DNA of 64,000 nt from a virus (lineage: Duplodnaviria > Caudoviricetes). The notes under the pieces are model-generated. The model ran no database searches, was not told the DNA's origin, and was given only the letters and a program-made list of their open reading frames with translations. Positions 13,156 through 36,792 of the stretch are shown here, piece after piece. Where the stretch lies: IMG/VR virus record IMGVR_UViG_3300012979_000031, positions 30,807-94,806 of that record; one strand, given 5' to 3'. The stretch's first letter is position 1. Each line of letters begins with the position of its first letter. The position numbers and the translations under genes are program-made.

Positions 13156-16100
13156 ATGGCAGACATTTTAAAACAAAATAAAATTCCAGGGAGGGAACAA
13201 TTAACTAGACCGTCTGAAATTAGTGCTCTGTCTAAGTATCTTGGAAATATAAAGAAAATACAAGACGAACATACTAAGCTAGATGATAGAATCCTAGAAG
13301 TAAAAGGTCGTGGTGATAAAGCTTATTTTCCAGAACTTAATTCCCTTGATGATTCAGTAGAAATTCTAGAAAATACAGGATCTGCAATTTTACTTGATGA
13401 TTCTAGGACTTCAATCCCTGGTAATATTCAAGATAAAATAAAGCTAAATGAAACCGTAATAAAAAACAATATCCCTAATCTTATCGAGGGTTTGGATGAT
13501 AGAGTTTCATTAGCCCCAGGAGAAATACCAGAACTTAATTCCCTTGATAACACAGTAATAAAAAATGAGGGTGACTTAAAGAAACTAGAAACCCTTGATG
13601 ACTCTGTTACTAAGATACATGTTGAAAATAAAGTTACTGGCCTAGATAATACAGTAATAAAACAACACCCAGAGAATACTATTAAAGAACTTGATGACTC
13701 TGTAGAAAATCTAGAAGTAAAAAATTTAATAAGCAAACTGGATAATTCTGTTCCCGGACTCAATGTTAATTCTAAGGTACAGTCATTACGAGATTCTGTA
13801 GAAAAACTAGAAGTACAAGAGAAAGTTTCCGGATTAGAGAAAGAAGTTGTTAAGGGAAATTTTGAGAATAAGGCAGAGGAGTTAAATAATAAGGTTGAGA
13901 GAATTCAGGTTGATGATAATATTGACCTAGATAATACCGTAGAAAATCTTTATATTGAAAATCCTATAGAAAGCTTGGGGGATATAGTTATTAAGAGATC
14001 TAGTAACTTTAACTCCGACATTGATAGCTTGGAGAATACAGTTATAAAGAGGTCTAGTAACTTTAACTCTGACGTTGATAGCTTGGAGAATACGGTTATA
14101 AAGAGGTCTAGTAATTTTAACTTTGATATTGAAGGCCTAGATTCTAGTATTTCTAAGTTAAGTGTCCAGGAACCTATTGATGATCTTGATAATTCTATAA
14201 AAAAGCTAGAAGTCAATGGAACAGTAGATAGCCTAGAGAAATTTAGAATAGAACTAGAAAATACTCCACAAATTACTGAGCTTAATAATGATATAGACAG
14301 TCTTGATATTGATGGAAAGATAGATAAGATTATTGAAGGGCTTAGAGGTGATGATGATGTTTCAGAATTAGAGGTTGTTTCCAAAGTAGATGAATTAATT
14401 ACTAAGATTCTGAGACTACCAATGGATAAAAAGTTTTCAGAAGCTAAGAAGGCGCTAATAGATGCAGAACGTGAAGGACAACCTATAGATAAAGCTTTTA
14501 ATATTGTCATGAAGATGTTGGACGACTACAGAGATAATAGTAGTTCTCCTTGGGTTGTAGATAAAATTAAAAGTATTCTAACCGATGCAATCTTTAGTTC
14601 ACCAATAGATAGACCTTTCTCCGGTTATGATTCAACTACAAGAGAGAGATATTCAGTACTTATAAAGAAACTGGAGGAAGCAGTAAATATAGCTGAAGTA
14701 TCTTTATGGGAATCTTCTGGAACACGAAATAGAATTAGTCAGGTAGGAGAATTTAAGAAAACTAGAAAAAGAGACGAAGATGATATTGAGATAGTTCCTT
14801 CTTATACATTACCTAATCACAGACTTCCAAAGATAGGCAAAGATTCAACTGTTAATAGTGTACTTTCAGATTTAACGTCGGGAAGCTTATCTGTTAATGG
14901 AATGGATTATGCTCGCTTTAGTATTGAGAAAGGTTTGAAGGATGTAAGAGGTAGTTTAAAGATGCACATACTAAAAGAATCTCTACGTGCAGTTAATTAT
15001 CTTAGAGACCTCGGTGAACGTACTCTTGGAATTAACCCGGGTAGACTTCCTGGAACACCTGTAGATGATTCTTCCGTAACTAGTGTAGCAAGATCTATTG
15101 TAAAAACTTTAAAGAATACAACAGTTCTTCTCAATGATACTAACGCTCTTCATTCAAAACTTAGAAACTCAATAATATCAATAGTAGACCTCTCATTGTC
15201 GAAGAATAGACCAAAGACTGTTACTACTAAGAGTGGAAAAGTTGAGAAAGTACCTACTAAGAATTATCAAGCGGCTAATAATAGAAAAAGAAAAATAGAT
15301 AATGATAGCCTAGCAATAACATATAAACTACTATCTAATATAAAGTCTGATTTTGATCCAACATTACAGTCAGTAGAAATAGTAGATAGCGATTATATAA
15401 ATTTTGCTAGAAACTATATGTACTCTGAGGGAATTCAAACTACTTTAATGGATCTTTGTAATATAAGTAGTAGTGATATCCCATCAAGTTTTGAAGAGCT
15501 ACAAAAAATACTTAGAGAAAGTCCGTATATAACAACCCCAGGTAAATTTGGCAATACTAGTTATAGCGAAAATAGAGCACAGACACTTGCAGTTACTAAT
15601 TATTGGGAAATCTTACTAGAGCCTTTTGTTAACAATGAGATGAATGGAGGCTTTAGTTATTTACCAGCAATTCAAGAGATCAACCTAATAAACCAGAAGA
15701 AACATGGAGTGAATACAGGTTATAATGCTTGGATACCTTTTACTGGTTTTGATATGACTCTTAGTAAATTAAATACAAAGTCTGTCGGGTTGTATGATGG
15801 AGAAATAGTTTATCCAATATCTTCAGAATTAACAAATGAACTAAGGATAACTATTGCAGATGATATTTATAAGTCATGGAATTGGTACTTTAAAACAGTT
15901 TCCGATGTTTCTGTTTATAGTTCAGTACCTCACAATAAATATTACTATACCGGACAATCACTAAAATACCCTATTGCTCCAACGTATGTAGATAAAACTT
16001 GTCCTTGTGTAGCTTTATATAAGAACATTACATTTAGGATTAGAATATTTATCATGACACCTCAATACTCTACTATAAAATCTTTTGATCTACTTTGTGT

Positions 16101-29137: not shown

Positions 29138-29759
29138 ACTAACTAAGGCTACTACTATACTGGGAATGAACCTGGAAAATGCTTGTAAGTGGTTGGATAA
29201 GGTAGAACAGAATACTTACTACTCCCTAATGAAAAATTTTAGAGATACTATTGCTGACTACTTGAGGGATTACGTAGAGTACACAGCAACTTTCAATGGT
29301 AATATAACTTCTACTACACCTCCAACACCACTGGTCCAGGTTCCACTACAAAAAGGCAAATTATCTACTGACCTGATGAAAACCCTACCTCCACCAGTTT
29401 GCTCTATGTATTCAATCGAGAGTGGGGAAGATGGTCTTAGTCAATGGATAACCTGGATGACTAGTGTGTATGCTCAAATAACTTCTGGAACTTTTATACT
29501 CGGAACTAACTTTCAACCAACTTCTATGACTACTCCGATGGGTAATTTTCCTGCCTTTACATCTTTAAGTCTAGGCTGGAGTAGAGATGATTTATTAGGC
29601 GCTCTGGAAAATAAACAAAGCATTTTCGATACAATAGCTGGTAATATAATATCTGACTTGAAGAGAAGTATAACAATTCCTTCTTATCCAAGTTCAGGGA
29701 CTATAAGCATGCAACCAGTCTTAGGAACAGATACTATAACTACGTTTATCTATCCTTGA
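29130..29759 (+). CDS. Hypothetical protein downstream of spike
   Basis: 209 aa ORF overlapping the spike stop. Confidence 0.65.
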   Translation: MNELTKATTILGMNLENACKWLDKVEQNTYYSLMKNFRDTIADYLRDYVEYTATFNGNITSTTPPTPLVQVPLQKGKLSTDLMKTLPPPVCSMYSIESGEDGLSQWITWMTSVYAQITSGTFILGTNFQPTSMTTPMGNFPAFTSLSLGWSRDDLLGALENKQSIFDTIAGNIISDLKRSITIPSYPSSGTISMQPVLGTDTITTFIYP

Positions 29760-29804
29760 AAAAAAAATAAAGAGAGGGAACACTATATCCTTCTCTTCTT
29801 TTTT
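29760..29804. terminator. Probable bidirectional terminator at the convergence of the + operon and the minus island
   Basis: A run, AAGAGAGGGA-N8-TCCTTCTCTT, T run. Confidence 0.7.
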
Positions 29805-29816
29805 ACTAATTTACAG

Positions 29817-29855
29817 AAAAAAAATAAAGCCAATCCATCACAGACTAGCTTTATT
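29817..29855 (-). terminator. Minus-strand terminator
   Basis: Minus strand AATAAAGCTAGTC-TGTGATG-GATTGGCTTTATT then T run; pairs fully only on the minus strand via G-U. Confidence 0.7.
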
Positions 29856-29885
29856 CATTACCACAATTTCGATTTTGACATTTTA

Positions 29886-29903
29886 CATATATAAGGAATC
29901 TAG
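29886..29903 (-). promoter_or_regulatory. Putative promoter box
   Basis: Minus strand CTAGATTCCTTATATATG. Confidence 0.55.
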
Positions 29904-29914
29904 GGGAAGAGATG

Positions 29915-30229
29915 TTATGCCTGTCCCCATTTATTTAGTTCTGCATAATCTGAGCCTGGTAAGAACTGAATATTACTCTTTAGATTACCTATCAAGTCAT
30001 CAATAGATTTAAATAAATTATCCCTAGTTATAGTTATCTTGGCTTCTGATTTTACACCACTACTATTACTATAACTATACTTCACCTGATAAACTTCATC
30101 TGCAGACTTAATATCACTCTCATTTTTCCACAGCTTAATCTCTATATAAGTTACTTCTCCTTGCACAATCTTTTCATCTGCTAGAAAAAATACCTCACTT
30201 CCAATATCAAACTTAGTCTCTAGTATCAT
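29915..30229 (-). CDS. Hypothetical phage protein
   Basis: 104 aa, starts MILETKFDIGSEVFFL. Confidence 0.7.
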   Translation of the reverse strand: MILETKFDIGSEVFFLADEKIVQGEVTYIEIKLWKNESDIKSADEVYQVKYSYSNSSGVKSEAKITITRDNLFKSIDDLIGNLKSNIQFLPGSDYAELNKWGQA

Positions 30230-30240
30230 AACTTAAAAAA

Positions 30241-30786
30241 TTAATATTTATTAAACTTAATAGGCTTCTTTACTCCATTATTATCCAAGGATTTAAATAC
30301 TCTAAGTACTAATCCTAACTCCTCTATTATAGCATCAGTAACTTTCTCCTTAGCTTTCTTGTTTGTCTTAGCTAGCTTTGATAAGAAACGAGTCTTTCCT
30401 AGGAATGGAGTTAATTCTCGATACCCTAAAATCTTATCTAGTAACTTTATAAATTCCTCTTTATCAAGCTCAATAGATTTTTCTCTCGAATTAAACATCT
30501 TAGCCCACACCGCTTTTACTATCTTCTTAGATTTCTCCTCCCAGAACAAACCTAATAATCTATTTAACGAAACCGCAACTCCAGGGACACCATACTTATT
30601 TAATTGTAGTAATAGGATCTTTCGAACTTCCTTGTACTTCACTGTGATGGTAATAGGATCTTCAGGTTTCAGCTTCTCTATCCAGTTAAAGAAGAATATA
30701 TTTCCCTCTATCTCAGAAAGCGCTTCTCCTTTACTGATCTTCTTATTAATGTTCTTCAATGACCTTTTCTTTGCATCAGATTTCAT
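30241..30786 (-). CDS. Basic hypothetical protein
   Basis: 181 aa Lys-rich ORF with an upstream promoter box. Confidence 0.7.
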   Translation of the reverse strand: MKSDAKKRSLKNINKKISKGEALSEIEGNIFFFNWIEKLKPEDPITITVKYKEVRKILLLQLNKYGVPGVAVSLNRLLGLFWEEKSKKIVKAVWAKMFNSREKSIELDKEEFIKLLDKILGYRELTPFLGKTRFLSKLAKTNKKAKEKVTDAIIEELGLVLRVFKSLDNNGVKKPIKFNKY

Positions 30787-30807
30787 AGTAATAATTATTT
30801 TAATCTA

Positions 30808-30827
30808 CATTTATAAGATTAATCTAG
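30808..30827 (-). promoter_or_regulatory. Putative promoter box
   Basis: Minus strand CTAGATTAATCTTATAAATG. Confidence 0.5.
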
Positions 30828-30848
30828 CCTATGATCAGTGAATTCAAG

Positions 30849-30880
30849 AAAAAAAAAAGAAGACCTATCTCTAAGCCTTC
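30849..30880 (-). terminator. Terminator after FNT gene
   Basis: Minus strand GAAGGCTTA-GAGA-TAGGTCTTC followed by a long T run. Confidence 0.7.
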
Positions 30881-30892
30881 TCTTTCTATTTT

Positions 30893-31585
30893 CTATTCCA
30901 CTTCTTTGTACACTACTCTTCTCATATTACAACCTATAAAGTTACCTATGATAGAAGAAATCCAAATTAAAACCGGAGCATTATACCAATTGTCACCTGC
31001 CTTTATCATATAATTTTCTAGATATTGTAACCCTGGTATATAATCTGGTGCTCCTATAAACGGTGATGCTGCCATTGCATAATAAGTCTTAATGTCATAG
31101 AAGAAACCTAATGCATAGTAAAAACAATCTGCAATACTATGATAGAATCCACATAAAATAAATGCAGGAACTCCAAGTAATACCGGAACTACATTTCCGG
31201 TCTTCTTATATGCATAAACTATACAATCAATAATAACTCCACACATCACGGCCTTTGAAATTGCCTCTAATACTGTAGTTGAGTATCTTGTCTCTAAGGT
31301 CTTCCTCAAACTCTCACCTACAACATCTGAAATAACTGGAATAGAACAAATACCTGCCGTAATAATACAGCCAATGAAATTACCTACTAGGATAACTCCA
31401 AAGAGCTTTCCTAACTCACTTTTTAGGTCTACTGTTCCCGCTTTTACTGTGAATAGATTAGCGGAAAACATACATACTAAGACTAGCCCTAAACTAAATC
31501 CTAGAGCTCCAATCACGCCTCCTACATTAAGATATACGAAACTCGCTATCCCAATAAAGAACCCTGCTAAAATAGAATTTCTCAT
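30893..31585 (-). CDS. Formate/nitrite transporter (FNT) family channel
   Basis: SILAGFFIG, FSLGL...ANLFT, two GNFIG motifs and FILCGFYHSIAD. Confidence 0.85.
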   Translation of the reverse strand: MRNSILAGFFIGIASFVYLNVGGVIGALGFSLGLVLVCMFSANLFTVKAGTVDLKSELGKLFGVILVGNFIGCIITAGICSIPVISDVVGESLRKTLETRYSTTVLEAISKAVMCGVIIDCIVYAYKKTGNVVPVLLGVPAFILCGFYHSIADCFYYALGFFYDIKTYYAMAASPFIGAPDYIPGLQYLENYMIKAGDNWYNAPVLIWISSIIGNFIGCNMRRVVYKEVE

Positions 31586-31612
31586 TTTTATTTGTTTTAA
31601 ATGTTATTATTT

Positions 31613-31633
31613 CTATATATAAGGGTTTTCTGA
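31613..31633 (-). promoter_or_regulatory. Putative promoter box for the FNT gene, overlapping the MFS stop
   Basis: Minus strand TCAGAAAACCCTTATATATAG. Confidence 0.5.
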
Positions 31634-32806
31634 CTTATTAATTTTATAGATAGTGTAGTTAGAAATAAGATATAGAATAGCTAGGACATAAAATAGAGTA
31701 TTATATCCAAGCTCTAGTCTATTTACAATTATATTAGACAAGGAATTACCACACAATCCAGCCACACCCCAAGCAGATAAAGCAAGACCGTGAACGATAC
31801 TTAATTTTTTTACTCCGTAAGTGTCTGCAATAATAGGAGGAAGTGAAGAGAAACCACCACCATAACCTAGATTGATGATAAGAATAAGAGCTAAGATAAT
31901 AGAAGCGTTCCCTAGATTACCTAATACACAAATTATAGTACAGAGTGTTAAGAATGTTGTATAAGTTAGAGTTTTGTTTTTCAGGTAATCAGACCAAGTT
32001 GCAAAACCTATTCTTCCTATAGTATTAGACAGGGCGGATAATGAGCTAACAATTCCCGCAGAGATAAGGATACTATATTCTGCTACTATATTTTTCTCGA
32101 ATGATATAATAGCTAGACCACAAGTAATATTAAGGAAGAAAGCGAACCACAGTTTTAGGAATACCTTATCAGTTTTTACAAATTCTACCACATTAAAATC
32201 TTCTTTCAAGTGTATATCTTCGCTCTCCGGTTTCTTGATGAGTAGAGTTGCCGTAAGAATAGAAACAGCTCCAATACCAGAAATAGTTAAGATAGTACAG
32301 TAAGTAGAGGTATTAACTAGTAGGTATTCGATCATTGGGGAGAAAATAACTTTAGACAATCCAAACCCGGCAATAGCGATACCTGCAGCTAGTCCTTTAT
32401 TATCTTTAAACCAGAGCATAAGAGTTTTAACTGGAGTAAGATAACCAATCCCTAGACCTATACCCATTACTACTCCATAGCCTATAATAAAGAGTGAGGC
32501 AAGCTTAGTATCGATCCCTAGAGCTGCAATCCCCAGGCCGGAACAGAAGAATATACCAGAAACGAGAGCAGATAGTGTAACGTTTTTCTCTACGAACTTA
32601 CTACAAAAAGCTGCAGACATACCTAAGAAGAAGATAGCCAGTGAAAATGCAACCTCAATATCAGAAGTCTTAACACCAAGGTCACCAGCCACACTATCTT
32701 TAAGGAGTGACCAACAATAAACGCTACCGATACATACATGAATTAACAAAGCTGGGATTGCACCACAGATCCATTTGTTTTCTTTTTTGTTTAATAGTTT
32801 TATCAT
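31613..32806 (-). CDS. MFS transporter, oxalate:formate antiporter (OFA) family
   Basis: ~12 hydrophobic segments; IHVCIGSVYCWS, GIGLGIGYLTPVKTLMLWFKDNKGLAAG, YGGGFSSLP. Confidence 0.85.
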   Translation of the reverse strand: MIKLLNKKENKWICGAIPALLIHVCIGSVYCWSLLKDSVAGDLGVKTSDIEVAFSLAIFFLGMSAAFCSKFVEKNVTLSALVSGIFFCSGLGIAALGIDTKLASLFIIGYGVVMGIGLGIGYLTPVKTLMLWFKDNKGLAAGIAIAGFGLSKVIFSPMIEYLLVNTSTYCTILTISGIGAVSILTATLLIKKPESEDIHLKEDFNVVEFVKTDKVFLKLWFAFFLNITCGLAIISFEKNIVAEYSILISAGIVSSLSALSNTIGRIGFATWSDYLKNKTLTYTTFLTLCTIICVLGNLGNASIILALILIINLGYGGGFSSLPPIIADTYGVKKLSIVHGLALSAWGVAGLCGNSLSNIIVNRLELGYNTLFYVLAILYLISNYTIYKINKSENPYI

Positions 32807-32827
32807 AATATTTTAAATTTAATTAAT

Positions 32828-32846
32828 CGTATATAAGGGTTTCAAG
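32828..32846 (-). promoter_or_regulatory. Putative promoter box for the MFS gene
   Basis: Minus strand CTTGAAACCCTTATATACG. Confidence 0.55.
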
Positions 32847-32865
32847 AATTCTATACCTTCTTTCT

Positions 32866-33934
32866 TTATAACTTTTCTAATATTCTTACACCCTCTATTT
32901 GTTTACCTTCTACTGATTTTGTAGCTCTCTTTGTTTTTAAATATTTATCTAGTTCTGATGCCTTTGGACAAGCTTTATAACCAAGATTACTATAGATTTC
33001 TCCTAATAATTTTTTCACGTCCTTGTTAGAATAAAACTCACCTACCTGAAAAGTATTGTAGATGTTATTAAGTAAGGCTTCTTCATCTACCTTCACCTCT
33101 TCTTTCTTTTTTTTCTTCCTTTTCTTTCTTCAATTTTCTTACCTTCACTTTTATAACTCCATTCTTAATATCTTCGTACTCTCTTCTAATATCCGTAACA
33201 TTATAACCATGAGCTTTACATCTTCCAGGACCGAGGACTATGTAATATTTCTTGTAGGTTAGTGGAATTTGATTAAGTATAGCCAGTCTTTCACTCTCAC
33301 TAAAATTATTATCACACAATGCTTTCATTTTATGACTAAAGTCTGGAAGTGTATTAAAGTTCTCTAAAAACTTCTTAATATCATCTCCTAGGTCTACATC
33401 AATAATACTTAAATCTCCTTCACTGAAACACTCCTTAAACATCTTTACACTAAAAATAGTTTTACCTAACATTGGAATATATTTATCTATCAAGGTATCA
33501 TATTCTTTTACTATTTCCTCAGAGTTATTCTCCTTTAGCCGCTCAGTGCAATATATATTTATTAGCATCTCTACTTCTTCTCTGAACTCAATATATCTCT
33601 CAGTTAACCTTCCATCAGTCCCTCTGATAAAGTAAGCTAGGTCAGATACTTTAAACTCATTATCTAAACTTTCTTTTGTTCTATGTCTATCGAAAAACCT
33701 TAGAATCTCTACACTATCCTCAAACCATTCCTTTCTATATATCAAGTACTCATTGAACTTGGCTTGAATTAATTTCTCATGATCCTCTGTAGCATCTGGT
33801 ATTGTATATAAAACTTTACAAAATGGATTATGTAGTTTATAAAAATTTAGCCTTCTTTCAAAATTATCATCATTAGTATAACCAATTTTATAATAAGTTT
33901 CATTTCTACCTTCACTTTCTATTAGATATACCAT
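32866..33934 (-). pseudogene. GIY-YIG/T5orf172-like nuclease-domain gene split by a 1-nt frameshift in an A8 run (ORFs 33083..33934 and 32866..33096)
   Basis: N-terminal MVYLIE..YYKIGYT..RRL..Y..HNP..E..WF; removing one A at 33107-33114 joins the two ORFs, and the joined C-terminus parallels that of the adjacent helicase-like protein. Confidence 0.65.
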
Positions 33935-33936
33935 TA

Positions 33937-35934
33937 TTACTTCTCCTTTCTTTTAATTAATCCTAAACAATTACTAATAACTCCCTTTTTCATAATTCTA
34001 CATGGTTTTGTTTCAAAGTATCTCTCTAGATCAGTTGCCTTAGGAGTAGCTTTATATCCAAACTCTTTATAAATATTACCGAGACTTTCTTTTATTTCTT
34101 TTAATGTATACTTTTCTCCTATAGTAAACTTTTCATAAATTACATCTCTCATAGACTTAGTTATAGAGGAATTTGACTTAACTATATTATACTCAGCTTC
34201 AAGTTTAGATTTTTGATAACTAAGGGCTTTAATTTTATCCTTTCCTAGTATAGTTAAGTAATTTCTAAACTCCATTGGAAGACGAGAGACGAACCTATCA
34301 TAATCCTCCATTCCCGTTATTCCAGGATCACAGGCAAACTTCATCTTATCAATAAATGTAGTAAACTTGCAAAATTCTTCCTCCTTCTTCATTACAATGT
34401 CTCCAGTAGTATTATAGTTCAAGGTAGTAACCGTAGCATATACTGAGAATCTATTCTTATAATCTATCTGTTGAATTTCAAAACACCTCATCTCTGATAT
34501 CATTACTAGGTTGTTAAATACTGGAAATAAATCATCACCACCATGCTCATTAACTGCTACGTAATGATGCTTGTAGTTGAATATTTTGGCTGAATTTCTA
34601 TACTCCTCTGCTAATACATGCTTTCCAGAAACTTCCTCATATGATTTTAATAACGAATTTGTTCTTGATATCTTCTCCTTTAAGTAATTATCAAAATCAT
34701 CCTTAGTCTTAAAATTTTTACCTATCAATGTCTTGTAATATAACTTGGCATAATTTTTCCACGGATTTGTTTCTAGTCTTTGTCTTCCTAGAATTTGTGG
34801 TAAGTCTAGAGAAATATCAACAACTAAACAATCTATATTAGCATCACTGAATATAAAGGTCTGTGCATTAGTTGAGTAAAAGTCAGCACCAAGATAAACT
34901 GTTCTAGTACAAAAGGTAAACATTTTATGAGGCTCTCCTTCTAATGGTGGCTCTCCTATACAACTAACTCCTCTTTTCTTAACCTTTAATGCCTGCTTGA
35001 TCTTCTTTTCATTATCTGGAGTTCTAGCACAAATTACATTAGTCTCCTCATACGTTAATTTAGCTTTCTTTATAATATCACAAATATTTTTTACCGAATT
35101 AACATATATCACACACTCTTTACTCTGAATCTCCCTTATCACTCCATCTTCATCTACATATGATGCTATTGCCGTTTTTCCTATTTTATATCCTTCTATT
35201 ACATTTAATGCCTCTGTTATGATGTTTGTACAAGGCTTTATTTCTAAATTCGGTACATCTATTCTCCCCGGATCTTCTGATGACCAGTCTAGTTCATAAT
35301 ACGGAAGATCTTTAAATTCATCCAACATATCTAGATATTTATCAATCATAGGTGTAGCTGAGACAAAGCATATTCTCTTTAAATCTTGAATATGTCCTAA
35401 AAATCCAATCTCTGTATCAGATTTGAACTTACTATCTATAAATATACTCTGAAATTCATCAATAACTACATAATAATCTGTAATACTACTTCCCAAGGCT
35501 TCTTTTACTAATCTAAAGGAGTCATATGTAACTAAAATTTTTATAGGCAAACTTTTAGTTCTTCTCCGTAAAACATAATTGATTATAGATAACTTTAGTT
35601 GCTCTATCTTCTCCTTATTACTCTCTTTTACTTCAGCAATTTTTACTAAATCTTTTGGCTTCGCATCAACAGTTAAGTCTTTATCTACTGGTGTAACCTT
35701 CTCTAATTCATTTCTTACATAAAGTACTTCTGGATGTTGCTTTTCTTTATTCTCTAATAACACCTTTCTTGGAGAACAAAGAATGACATTTTTAGAATTA
35801 GTTATACAATATTTAGTAAAACCACAACCAGTTAACTGTTTATTTAAAATACAGGGTTCCTCTGGTAACGAGAACCCTGTCCATTCACTAATGTACCTAA
35901 TACCTTTTGGTACGTTTAATTTTTCTTTTCTCAT
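33937..35934 (-). CDS. SF2 helicase-like protein with degenerate Walker A; candidate origin-binding protein
   Basis: LTGCGFT (Walker A-like), VIDEFQS (Walker B), VSATP (motif III), QILGRQR (motif VI); probable ATG at 35934. Confidence 0.65.
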   Translation of the reverse strand: MRKEKLNVPKGIRYISEWTGFSLPEEPCILNKQLTGCGFTKYCITNSKNVILCSPRKVLLENKEKQHPEVLYVRNELEKVTPVDKDLTVDAKPKDLVKIAEVKESNKEKIEQLKLSIINYVLRRRTKSLPIKILVTYDSFRLVKEALGSSITDYYVVIDEFQSIFIDSKFKSDTEIGFLGHIQDLKRICFVSATPMIDKYLDMLDEFKDLPYYELDWSSEDPGRIDVPNLEIKPCTNIITEALNVIEGYKIGKTAIASYVDEDGVIREIQSKECVIYVNSVKNICDIIKKAKLTYEETNVICARTPDNEKKIKQALKVKKRGVSCIGEPPLEGEPHKMFTFCTRTVYLGADFYSTNAQTFIFSDANIDCLVVDISLDLPQILGRQRLETNPWKNYAKLYYKTLIGKNFKTKDDFDNYLKEKISRTNSLLKSYEEVSGKHVLAEEYRNSAKIFNYKHHYVAVNEHGGDDLFPVFNNLVMISEMRCFEIQQIDYKNRFSVYATVTTLNYNTTGDIVMKKEEEFCKFTTFIDKMKFACDPGITGMEDYDRFVSRLPMEFRNYLTILGKDKIKALSYQKSKLEAEYNIVKSNSSITKSMRDVIYEKFTIGEKYTLKEIKESLGNIYKEFGYKATPKATDLERYFETKPCRIMKKGVISNCLGLIKRKEK

Positions 35935-36010
35935 AAATTTTTTAATAATAATATTTTTGTAAATCAAAATTACAAAAGTTCTTTAAAAACCTTTAATAAT
36001 TTATCTATAA

Positions 36011-36028
36011 CAATTATAAGAAATTCTG
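36011..36028 (-). promoter_or_regulatory. Putative promoter box for the helicase-like gene
   Basis: Minus strand CAGAATTTCTTATAATTG. Confidence 0.4.
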
Positions 36029-36130
36029 GTTAATAAAACTCCTAAATTGGATAATTTTTTCACTATTTTTACCCTATTACTATTAATATAACGAAAAAAT
36101 GTCAAAATAGTTTATTTCAATTTAAGCTAA

Positions 36131-36258
36131 GATGACGACCCCCTTGTAGGACTTTGGGGTCGTCATCCAGATAGAAGAGTAAACGGGCTTTGATTTTATT
36201 TGAGATATAATCGAGAATAAAATCAGTGGCACGTGTGGGAGGGCGTTTACTCTTCTAT
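36131..36258. repeat. Cluster of perfect inverted repeats in a divergent intergenic region (candidate origin or structured RNA)
   Basis: 12-bp IR 36131-36142/36156-36167; 15-bp IR 36171-36185/36244-36258 enclosing a 10-bp IR 36191-36200/36216-36225. Confidence 0.85.
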
Positions 36259-36409
36259 ATTGTCCTAATTAGAGTTTATTTAAGTTAGTTTTAAAGAGAA
36301 GAATAGAAGAAATTAATTAGAGGAAGTCAGGTGGGACTGGGGCTCCCAGGCTGGCTTTTCTAGAGTTCACATTTTTTCTCCTCCGTTTCGAAAAAGAGGT
36401 TTTTGAGAG

Positions 36410-36425
36410 TAGACTCTTATAGGTG
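36410..36425 (+). promoter_or_regulatory. Putative promoter box for the baseplate wedge operon
   Basis: TAGACTCTTATAGGTG upstream of 36448. Confidence 0.4.
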
Positions 36426-36447
36426 TGAACAAAAGACATGAAAGTTT

Positions 36448-36792
36448 ATGGAAAAATATTTATTATCAACAGGAAAATCAACATATAGACTCGAGTTATA
36501 CATATTAGACCAGTTTAAGTTGTATCTCACTGTTAATCCTGGAGACATACCTGGAGATTCTAGCATAGGTTTTGATTTTACTTTAACGAATGTAATGAAA
36601 TCAGAATTAAGGGAAGAGGTATCGAAGAGGGTTATGGAGTTAATACAGAAGATACAGTCGGAATATGGAAAAGGGGTGACAATAGTAGTGAATTCGCTAG
36701 ATATAATAAATGAGGAGAGAGCGGACTTAGTTATAACAGTCACAGCCGGAGGAGAGGTAATGGATAATATAAGTGTAGATTTATATAAGTAG
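36448..36792 (+). CDS. Baseplate wedge / sheath initiator (gp25-like)
   Basis: 114 aa; LTVNPGDIPGDSSIGFDF motif; first gene of the wedge cluster. Confidence 0.65.
   Translation: MEKYLLSTGKSTYRLELYILDQFKLYLTVNPGDIPGDSSIGFDFTLTNVMKSELREEVSKRVMELIQKIQSEYGKGVTIVVNSLDIINEERADLVITVTAGGEVMDNISVDLYK

Follow-up and report, generated by a model that had tools for sequence, protein, structure and literature searches.

Why would a helicase-like and a nuclease-like protein, encoded by neighbouring genes of a virus of the class Caudoviricetes, end in the same domain, and does this domain bring both of them to the same place on DNA? The question arises from a preliminary description of a 64,000-nt stretch of the IMG/VR record IMGVR_UViG_3300012979_000031 (positions 30,807 to 94,806; hereafter, the window), in which the common domain was proposed to direct two different catalytic heads to one site, plausibly the adjacent palindromes, either as a two-component initiator/regulator module or as a homing nuclease that had captured the binding domain of an initiator. 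The locus comprises the following features:

34402..35934, minus strand: SF2 helicase-like core, residues 1-511 of a 665-aa protein
33940..34401, minus strand: residues 512-665 of the helicase-like protein, its copy of the shared C-terminal domain, in which a predicted winged helix follows a helical part
33635..33934, minus strand: T5orf172 / GIY-YIG-clan nuclease head of a split gene, residues 1-100
33152..33385, minus strand: frame A of the T5orf172 ORF, encoding the helical first half of the shared domain, C-domain HMM positions 5-81
33107..33114, minus strand: A8 run (T8 on the plus strand) within the lysine-rich linker, seen in the sequence itself
32869..33129, minus strand: second (predicted winged-helix) half of the shared domain, frame B, C-domain HMM positions 70-154
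35935..36447, no strand assigned: non-coding region 5' of the helicase gene, between divergent genes, 513 bp, a candidate cis site

The helicase-like gene likely starts at ATG 35934, which yields 665 aa, the length of the database entry P0003, and not at TTG 35967; the second half of the shared domain in the nuclease gene is listed as a 76-aa ORF starting at GTG 33096. The helicase and T5orf172 genes are separated by a 3-bp gap in the window pair and overlap by 4 bp in a paralogous pair. Upstream of the window, the same 94.8-kb contig carries a further helicase and T5orf172 pair, which is intact (L006:11844-13823 and 13820-14857); a third T5orf172-like protein, also encoded there (L006:2807-3766), is divergent, has the shared C-terminal domain too, and matches the T5orf172 head profile weakly (E 2e-4).

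The common C-terminal domain suspected in the preliminary description is real. Alignment of the family profiles by hhalign yields a single block of ~155 residues, positions 190-344 of the T5orf172 family against positions 512-665 of the helicase-like family (E 3.5e-54), and the BLASTP matches of the helicase-like ORF to both nuclease pieces are collinear, with residues 522-598 aligned to residues 183-258 of the T5orf172 ORF (29% identity, E 6e-07), and residues 605-654, to residues 7-56 of the 76-aa ORF (46% identity, E 8e-14). This domain (hereafter, the tail) has no match in Pfam, PHROGs, or NCBIfam. A search with its profile retrieved 1402 cluster representatives; the tail is at or near the C-terminus in all matches listed, and a few proteins contain two or three copies. 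The heads joined to the tail in 122 scanned proteins are T5orf172/MUG113 (46 and 56 members), helicase-like, or none, the stand-alone tails being 130-190 aa long.

The predicted fold provides a clue to the role of the tail. According to the AF2 model, residues 595-662 of the helicase-like protein form a helix, a strand, two helices, and two strands, the canonical order of winged-helix elements; the tail has a basic pI, and its predicted wing tip carries a conserved basic GKR. Judging from the model, it is probably a DNA-binding domain. The match to the RFX-type winged-helix domain (1dp7) is moderate, with 6% sequence identity and a modest Z, and, unlike this domain, the tail has an extra six-helix part before the winged helix. 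No Foldseek match at E <= 0.001 was found for the whole 345-aa model, and ESM Atlas returned only unnamed viral clusters and, as a weak structural lead, BT4734-like proteins of Bacteroidota (TM 0.45). The putative recognition helix, PKAxDLExYFE, is near-invariant across paralogues. This speaks against diversified specificities and in favour of a ligand common to all tails, of non-specific binding, or of binding to a protein.

The nuclease head was compared with the profiles of the T5orf172 / GIY-YIG clan (PF10544 and PF13455, curated cut-offs), and scored 32.3 bits for T5orf172 (cut-off 20) and 28.9 bits for MUG113 (cut-off 22.3). The archetype of the GIY-YIG nucleases is I-TevI. Residues Y3, K-I-G-Y, R34, and E75 are near-invariant in 98 family members, and the window copy has them as well; the catalytic assignment of the Tyr, Arg, and Glu draws on established knowledge on GIY-YIG nucleases and on PMC8263062.

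The frameshift that had been assumed in this gene is indeed present in the sequence: frame A ends at a stop at 33083, frame B (+1) is open from 33129, and both are open between 33086 and 33129. Judging from the sequence, the A8 run at 33107-33114 is most likely the indel site, as one A fewer would join both frames; the lysine-rich stretch of frame B, ending in ...KKKEEVKVDEEALLNN, agrees with intact orthologues of 348-367 aa. Natural orthologues of the nuclease, 75-85% identical to the window copy, are intact, the equivalent linker is read through in one frame in the intact orthologues P0396-P0402, and the half of the tail encoded in frame B is 85% identical to the tails of intact orthologues. 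The 283-aa product of the nuclease gene is also recorded on a separate 325,884-bp contig of the same phage, and exact-pattern scans of viral and metagenome contigs revealed no other copies of the A-run region. A helicase origin of the linker was considered as well and, in its canonical form, rejected by profile–profile comparison; some chimeric copies have a T5 head fused to helicase positions 391-504 and the tail.

For the helicase-like protein, the AF2 model (pLDDT 85.4) matches many SF2 helicases at Foldseek probability 1.00. The PDB matches include Brr2, Hel308, RecQ, and HSV-1 OBP (E ~1e-9 to 1e-8), with Ski2, RecQ, and DEAH helicases scoring as well as the OBP-named proteins do, and in BFVD the top match, an unnamed 606-aa viral protein, is followed by UL9-like “replication origin-binding proteins” as the commonest named matches (E 1e-11 to 1e-8). 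Two RecA-like domains and the invariant DEFQ, SAT, TRT, and QxxGRQR motifs place the protein in SF2; in 67 family members, the invariant residues are G36 C37 G38 T40, D159 E160 Q162, S192 A193 T194, and G383 R384 Q385 R386. The Walker A lysine of SF2 (GxGK[ST]) is missing, motif I being GCGFT in 67/67 aligned members; an invariant Lys is found four residues before this motif, on its N-terminal side, and distant homologues from cultured phages have GVGGTT and GCGAT. At the sequence level, the protein has no Pfam family at E <= 0.01, thus membership in Herpes_ori_bp was rejected, no PHROG or NCBIfam match, and no match at E <= 1 in a PDB sequence search.

By analogy, given the fold likeness to UL9-type origin-binding proteins, the helicase-like protein may be a replication initiator. 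In UL9 and in the origin-binding SF2 helicases of NCLDV, the SF2 core is likewise followed by a C-terminal region, which binds DNA in those systems; however, the tail is unrelated to their C-terminal domain, another residue takes the place of the Walker A lysine here, and, unlike those proteins, the helicases are represented by at least five paralogues per phage genome. In cultured phages, the distant helicase homologues are followed by nuclease genes of other kinds: the one in D'Alembert is annotated as HNH, and the one in Phab24 has an N-terminus that looks like GIY-YIG; the tail was looked for in these neighbours and is absent.

As for the palindromes, a 12-bp GC-rich hairpin (36131-36167) and a 15-bp inverted repeat (36171-36258) are located within 35935..36447. 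Long non-coding gaps 5' of helicase genes are typical of the family (median 567 bp at 72 loci), and only ~54 nt of the window region are conserved in the nearest relative. The palindromes are not a general family feature, GC-rich hairpins being present 5' of only 9/75 helicase genes. No motif common to both helicase upstream regions of this genome was found, a count of over-represented k-mers for a shared promoter box returned only what look like coding repeats, and Rfam families and tRNAs yielded nothing above noise in 29700-36500. Nothing ties the helicase-like protein or the nuclease to the palindromes at 35970-36447, and we treat them as a candidate cis site.

In the IMG/VR relatives, a helicase paralogue is located directly 5' of the nuclease gene in 80/80 nuclease loci, and the nuclease is present at only ~30/80 helicase loci, ~60% of the helicase paralogues being without a partner. 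Presence or absence at a conserved site is observed in two pairs of loci: between L129 and L131, whose flanks are 95-99% identical, there is a clean indel of 851 bp at the helicase stop codon, and in L156 and L169 the helicase genes are 99% identical, with the similarity ending exactly at the stop codon. Truncated and chimeric nuclease copies are common among the relatives.

On the phylogenetic tree, helicase and nuclease tails are intermixed, and well-supported branches force at least 11 switches. The nuclease tail is nearest to the tail of its own neighbour in six out of 15 locus groups (chance expectation ~1) and nearer to a helicase elsewhere in nine out of 15. Tail identity within a locus reaches 83%. 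In the window pair, the tails are 30% identical, and the window helicase ranks only 12th among the 15 locus groups by similarity to the window nuclease tail; the suggestion that both window proteins are led to the same site is, hence, unsupported.

Of the two alternatives offered in the preliminary description, an obligate two-component module is unlikely because ~60% of the helicase paralogues have no nuclease partner, and the homing nuclease with a captured binding domain fits the strict placement, the presence/absence pattern, the decayed copies, and the repeated tail swaps. On balance, we consider it probable, if well short of certain, that the T5orf172 gene encodes a free-standing nuclease of the homing type, which has repeatedly taken its predicted targeting tail from the UL9-like helicase. 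Its fixed insertion site would be the 3' end of the helicase-like gene, and the nuclease would be built of a GIY-YIG-clan head, a linker, and the ~155-residue tail as a targeting module. Recombination among adjacent and paralogous copies would re-copy the tail between helicase and nuclease genes time and again, and therefore, as we propose, the nuclease would inherit the DNA specificity of a helicase paralogue. It could then cut phage genomes bearing sites of helicase paralogues, and the cutting would drive gene conversion or the exclusion of rival phages. The break in the window nuclease, a 1-nt poly-A frameshift, would be the kind of damage that a homing gene is expected to suffer late in its life. 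At the same time, a functional partnership would explain the strict adjacency to helicase genes equally well, and the presence/absence indels could be deletions by recombination between both tail copies.

A homing-type nuclease of this kind can be compared with known systems. Odn (Gp88) of the Vibrio phage ICP1 consists of a T5orf172 nuclease and a RepA DNA-binding domain and cuts satellite origins (PMC8263062). The likeness lies in a T5orf172 nuclease with a borrowed replication-protein domain, acquired in Odn by recombination (PMC8263062); here, a domain common to the nuclease and the helicase-like protein is observed, and the initiator role of the latter is suggested by analogy. The borrowed domain of Odn is N-terminal, belongs to the RepA_N type, and was taken from a hostile satellite, whereas the tail is C-terminal, of a new helical and predicted winged-helix type, and common to the helicase-like gene directly upstream in the same phage; unlike Odn's domain, it has been exchanged many times.

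More generally, homing genes of the T5orf172 type are located at the boundaries of genetic exchange and reshuffle their DNA-binding domains (PMC10448857). Like the gene studied here, those of ICP1-like phages encode a nuclease head joined by a linker to a terminal DNA-binding module (predicted here), adjoin a conserved gene at an exchange boundary, and are often frameshifted or recombinant (PMC10448857). However, the modules they use are zinc fingers of the CapR type, AP2, or HTH rather than this tail (PMC10448857), and none of them has been described as having its module in common with the host gene alongside.

A more far-reaching reading, possible although rather doubtful, is that the upstream region, the helicase-like gene, and the nuclease gene form together a self-propagating module, a self-aiming weapon between phages. 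The DNA site would be defined by the helicase-like protein, which may be a site-specific binder without ATPase activity or one of several origin-binding initiators; the nuclease would re-copy the helicase tail by gene conversion and then cut rival or paralogous genomes at such sites, and the cutting would drag the whole module in. This would explain the at least five dispersed copies in these ~350-400-kb phages.

It is unlikely that the two proteins form a helicase–nuclease machine, with the tail taking both to one DNA site or dimerizing them, that would act as an initiator/nickase or a DNA-degrading motor-nuclease. The tight operon layout, the placement of all 80 nuclease genes behind a helicase, and the high tail identity within some loci are consistent with such a machine, but the prevalence of partnerless helicases, the clean loss of the partner at near-identical loci, the nine locus groups with the nuclease tail nearer to a foreign helicase, the combination of a frameshifted nuclease and an intact helicase in the window, and the absence of the Walker A lysine across the helicase family all argue against it.

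Still less probable is a domesticated nuclease-derived regulator, that is, a T5orf172-tail protein binding an operator, e.g., 5' of the helicase gene, and repressing transcription. Such repression is known from I-TevI, which acts on its own promoter, and from CapR, a satellite protein that does so in ICP1 infection (PMC10448857; 10.1101/2020.11.28.402263), and the unusually long non-coding regions 5' of helicase genes and the weak head match of the third T5orf172-like protein would suit this role; however, the head positions aligned with the GIY-YIG Tyr, Arg, and Glu are retained in most family members, and their near-invariance argues for retained catalysis.

We see little chance that the tail is a protein–protein or localization module, e.g., docking different enzymes on one phage or host factor. 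Such a role agrees with the most conserved residues being identical in all paralogues, with the moderate fold match, and with the existence of stand-alone tails, but not with the canonical order of winged-helix elements, the basic GKR wing tip, and the basic pI, nor with the fact that homing nucleases and UL9-like helicases classically need a DNA-binding domain exactly there (PMC10448857). Finally, the frameshift is hardly a switch, with polymerase or ribosome slippage at A8 producing a short (head and helical half) and a full-length form. In favour of a switch, the homopolymer sits in the overlap where both frames are open, the 76 codons downstream are undamaged and close to those of intact orthologues, and the 283-aa product recurs on the separate contig. 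Against it, the closest orthologues stay in a single frame throughout, a relative split in this way was not found, a run of eight A is rather short for slippage to be efficient, and other decayed copies of the nuclease family break elsewhere.

Two large phage protein families, both without annotation, are thus delineated: the SF2 helicase-like family of at least 4968 members, with the Walker A lysine in 0/67 aligned, and the family of the ~155-residue C-terminal domain with its 1402 cluster representatives, linked by recurrent exchange of the tail between a host-type gene and a probably selfish nuclease parked behind it. Domain borrowing of the ICP1 type would thereby extend to a large uncharacterised family of giant gut phages. 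If the tail is a sequence-specific DNA binder, the capture of specificity by T5orf172 nucleases, so far known from the conflict between ICP1 and its satellite, would be a general mechanism in gut jumbo phages, and the tails would provide both a handle on replication starts or gene-block regulation in uncultured phages and a natural set of swappable DNA-targeting modules.

The window (bases 30807-94806) belongs to an IMG/VR viral contig of 94,806 bp with a completeness of 25% (CheckV), and its GC content is about 33%. Relatives of the window genes are found on contigs of 290-405 kb, which makes this contig one piece of a jumbo tailed phage genome. Genes at 29915-35967 form a minus-strand island flanked by plus-strand genes; the ones considered here are:

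33937-35967, minus strand: helicase-like ORF, 676 aa; likely start ATG 35934, for a protein of 665 aa, equal in length to P0003 in the database
33083-33934, minus strand: T5orf172 nuclease ORF, 283 aa, with T5orf172 and MUG113 matches above the Pfam cut-offs
32866-33096, minus strand: 76-aa ORF matching the C-terminal domain (tail) of the helicase-like protein

Directly downstream of the split nuclease, the same island carries intact formate/nitrite-transporter-family and MFS-family genes (30893-32806, minus strand; Pfam E 2e-20 and 5e-27), which look like cargo at a nuclease-marked boundary.

The helicase-like tail is collinear with both small ORFs according to BLASTP, residues 522-598 matching residues 183-258 of the 283-aa ORF (E 6e-07) and residues 605-654 matching residues 7-56 of the 76-aa ORF (46% identity, E 8e-14). 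The profile-profile comparison of the two families yields a single 155-residue block (nuclease 190-344, helicase-like 512-665, E 3.5e-54), and no match between the profiles outside it. Taken together, the collinearity and the profile score place the homology far beyond chance, and thus the preliminary description correctly paralleled the helicase-like C-terminus with that of the frameshift-repaired nuclease.

As for the frameshift itself, frame A stops at 33083, and frame B (+1), which encodes a lysine-rich stretch ending in ...KKKEEVKVDEEALLNN, is open from 33129; their overlap spans an A8 run (33107-33114), and removal of one A would fuse the frames. An identical 283-aa product is recorded from a 325,884-bp contig, and hence the break is probably not an error private to the window contig, with the caveat that both assemblies may share reads. 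Conceivably, slippage at this site acts as a switch, but the close orthologues of the split nuclease (P0396-P0402, 348-367 aa, 75-85% identical) all have the equivalent linker in one frame.

A profile built from four intact tails identifies the domain in 1402 representatives of 50% identity clusters, at or near the C-terminus in every match listed, with two or three copies in a few proteins. Among 122 scanned tail proteins, the head matched MUG113 in 56 and T5orf172 in 46, the remaining heads being helicase-like, unrecognised or absent, and the tail itself had no Pfam family match. The AlphaFold model of P0002, the intact nuclease of a second pair on the same contig, has three parts, the helical linker and the tail among them (pLDDT 90.7); the tail is modelled as six helices, then helix, strand, helix, helix, strand, strand. 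Searching the ESM Atlas by structure with P0002 residues 190-345 retrieved a Bacteroidota BT4734/BF3469-family cluster (PF08800, TM 0.45), which hints weakly that mobile-element proteins of Bacteroidota may contain the domain too.

The helicase-like family comprises at least 4968 database proteins, those listed being all about 650-690 aa and none named, and the window member has no match in Pfam, PHROG, NCBIfam or PDB sequences. Its AlphaFold model (pLDDT 85.4) clearly predicts an SF2 helicase. Foldseek matches in PDB are Brr2, Hel308, Prp43, RecQ-type helicases, and the HSV-1 origin-binding protein (E 1e-9 to 1e-8); the best match among viral structures is an unnamed viral protein of 606 aa (E 1e-33), and of the named matches after it, UL9-like “replication origin-binding proteins” from herpesviruses and giant viruses are the commonest. 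All 67 aligned members keep motifs II (DEFQ), III (SAT), V, and VI (QxxGRQR) unchanged. Motif I (Walker A) reads GCGFT in 67 out of 67 (residues 36-40, window 35816-35830) and lacks the Walker A lysine in all of them, an invariant Lys lying four residues upstream; distant cultured-phage homologues lack this lysine as well (GVGGTT, GCGAT). Judging by these alignments, this is a whole putative SF2 family devoid of the P-loop lysine.

The nuclease gene is variably present behind the helicase-like one. When loci were recovered starting from the nuclease family, it lay immediately downstream of a helicase-like gene with the tail in 80 out of 80 IMG/VR loci, with three or four pairs in single genomes; starting from the helicase family, a nuclease followed in only about 30 out of 80, with five or more helicase paralogues in single genomes. 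Loci L129 and L131, with helicases 95% identical and downstream flanks 99% identical, differ by a clean 851-bp insertion that begins directly behind the helicase stop, and between L156 and L169 (helicase genes 99% identical) similarity ends entirely at the stop codon. Decayed or recombinant copies are common (truncated heads, truncated tails, tandem nucleases). The same traits are described for free-standing homing endonuclease genes, T5orf172 included: they are present in some relatives and not in others, insert at a fixed place where a conserved gene ends, coincide with breakpoints of similarity, and often decay (PMC10448857).

In the window's own genome, the second pair, upstream of the window, consists of a helicase-like gene (659 aa, 51% identity with its counterpart in the window) and, overlapping it by 4 bp, the intact 345-aa T5orf172 gene of P0002 with the whole tail. 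P0001 (L006:2807-3766, minus strand, outside the window; 319 aa) has the tail and a head weakly matching the T5orf172 profile (E 2e-4), is not adjacent to a helicase-like gene, and could be either a domesticated copy or one in decay. P0131 (232 aa), its middle region 95% identical to P0002 and its T5orf172 head replaced by a cysteine-rich (CxxC...CxxC) one, is an apparent case of head swapping at that locus in a close relative. In related phages, a chimera of a T5orf172 head, helicase positions 391-504 and the tail stands behind a normal pair (L035:6510-7934, also L036, L040, L041, L064, L110, L134, L135) and looks like a frozen intermediate in which a nuclease head has taken the place of the front part of a tandem helicase copy. 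Distant helicase homologues in cultured phages also have nuclease genes behind them, belonging to other families: a gene annotated HNH in Psychrobacter phage D’Alembert and, in Acinetobacter phage Phab24, one whose N-terminus looks like GIY-YIG; neither carries the tail. On the closest related contig, four tandem paralogues with a common N-terminus (MTEKEAEDLC...) and FNGDISKW-type repeats lie upstream of the helicase gene (L010:115-3372).

In the maximum-likelihood tree of 103 tails, nuclease and helicase tails interleave; the well-supported branches require no fewer than 11 head switches, and the parsimony count is 18. Identity between helicase and nuclease tails averages 64% within loci (maximum 83%) and 55% between loci. 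When orthologues are collapsed to give 15 locus groups, six of these have a nuclease tail that is most similar to the tail of its own neighbour (about one expected by chance); in the others the most similar one is a helicase tail from a different locus, at identities of up to 92%. The interleaving and the closest-tail pattern thus indicate repeated exchange, both locally and between modules. The window pair shows the poorest match (tails 30% identical, rank 12 of 15), which does not support the suggestion that both its proteins go to the same site.

Non-coding regions upstream of helicase-like genes have a median length of 567 bp (IQR 349-696; 72 loci among L094-L173), 513 bp in the window, which is unusual in a tightly packed phage genome; they are the obvious candidate binding sites for the helicase-like protein. 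In the window, a 10-bp inverted repeat is nested in a perfect 15-bp one (36171-36258), and about 54 nt therein, the sole conserved piece of this intergenic region, share 83% identity with the upstream region of the closest helicase-like relative (L094). The second helicase-like copy has repeated TTAGACA/TGTCTAA and TAATCAAT motifs (L006:11514-11821). The palindromes at 36131-36258 are not general among upstream regions of relatives and were rejected as a family feature; their proposed role as the target is accordingly unsupported. Strongly diversified specificities are made less likely by the putative recognition helix, whose sequence hardly varies between paralogues.

The original observation is thereby confirmed and extended, and its interpretation is partly supported. 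A homing nuclease that captured the initiator’s binding domain fits the presence/absence pattern and the tail swaps; the “same site” and “adjacent palindromes” parts are not supported. Such a homing-type nuclease would take its targeting module from helicase paralogues, and would therefore recognise DNA bound by such a helicase-like protein. For some copies, a domesticated repressor role is possible by analogy with CapR and with I-TevI at its operator. A true helicase–nuclease partnership, the two-component module initially envisaged, is unlikely: the adjacency is strict from the nuclease side, but about 60% of helicases have no nuclease partner, and the nuclease is cleanly lost. That the tail binds something other than DNA is improbable.

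The closest precedent for capture of a targeting domain is ICP1 Odn, a T5orf172 nuclease with a copy of the DNA-binding domain of the satellite RepA replication protein, which binds and cuts the satellite origin (PMC8263062); such pairing recurs in other phage-satellite systems (PMC10448857). Unlike Odn, whose donor is a satellite, here the donor would be a UL9-like SF2 protein that the same phage encodes just upstream of the nuclease, and exchange has taken place repeatedly. Thus, while related systems are already known, a captured-targeting-domain system would now be found in two large uncharacterised phage families.
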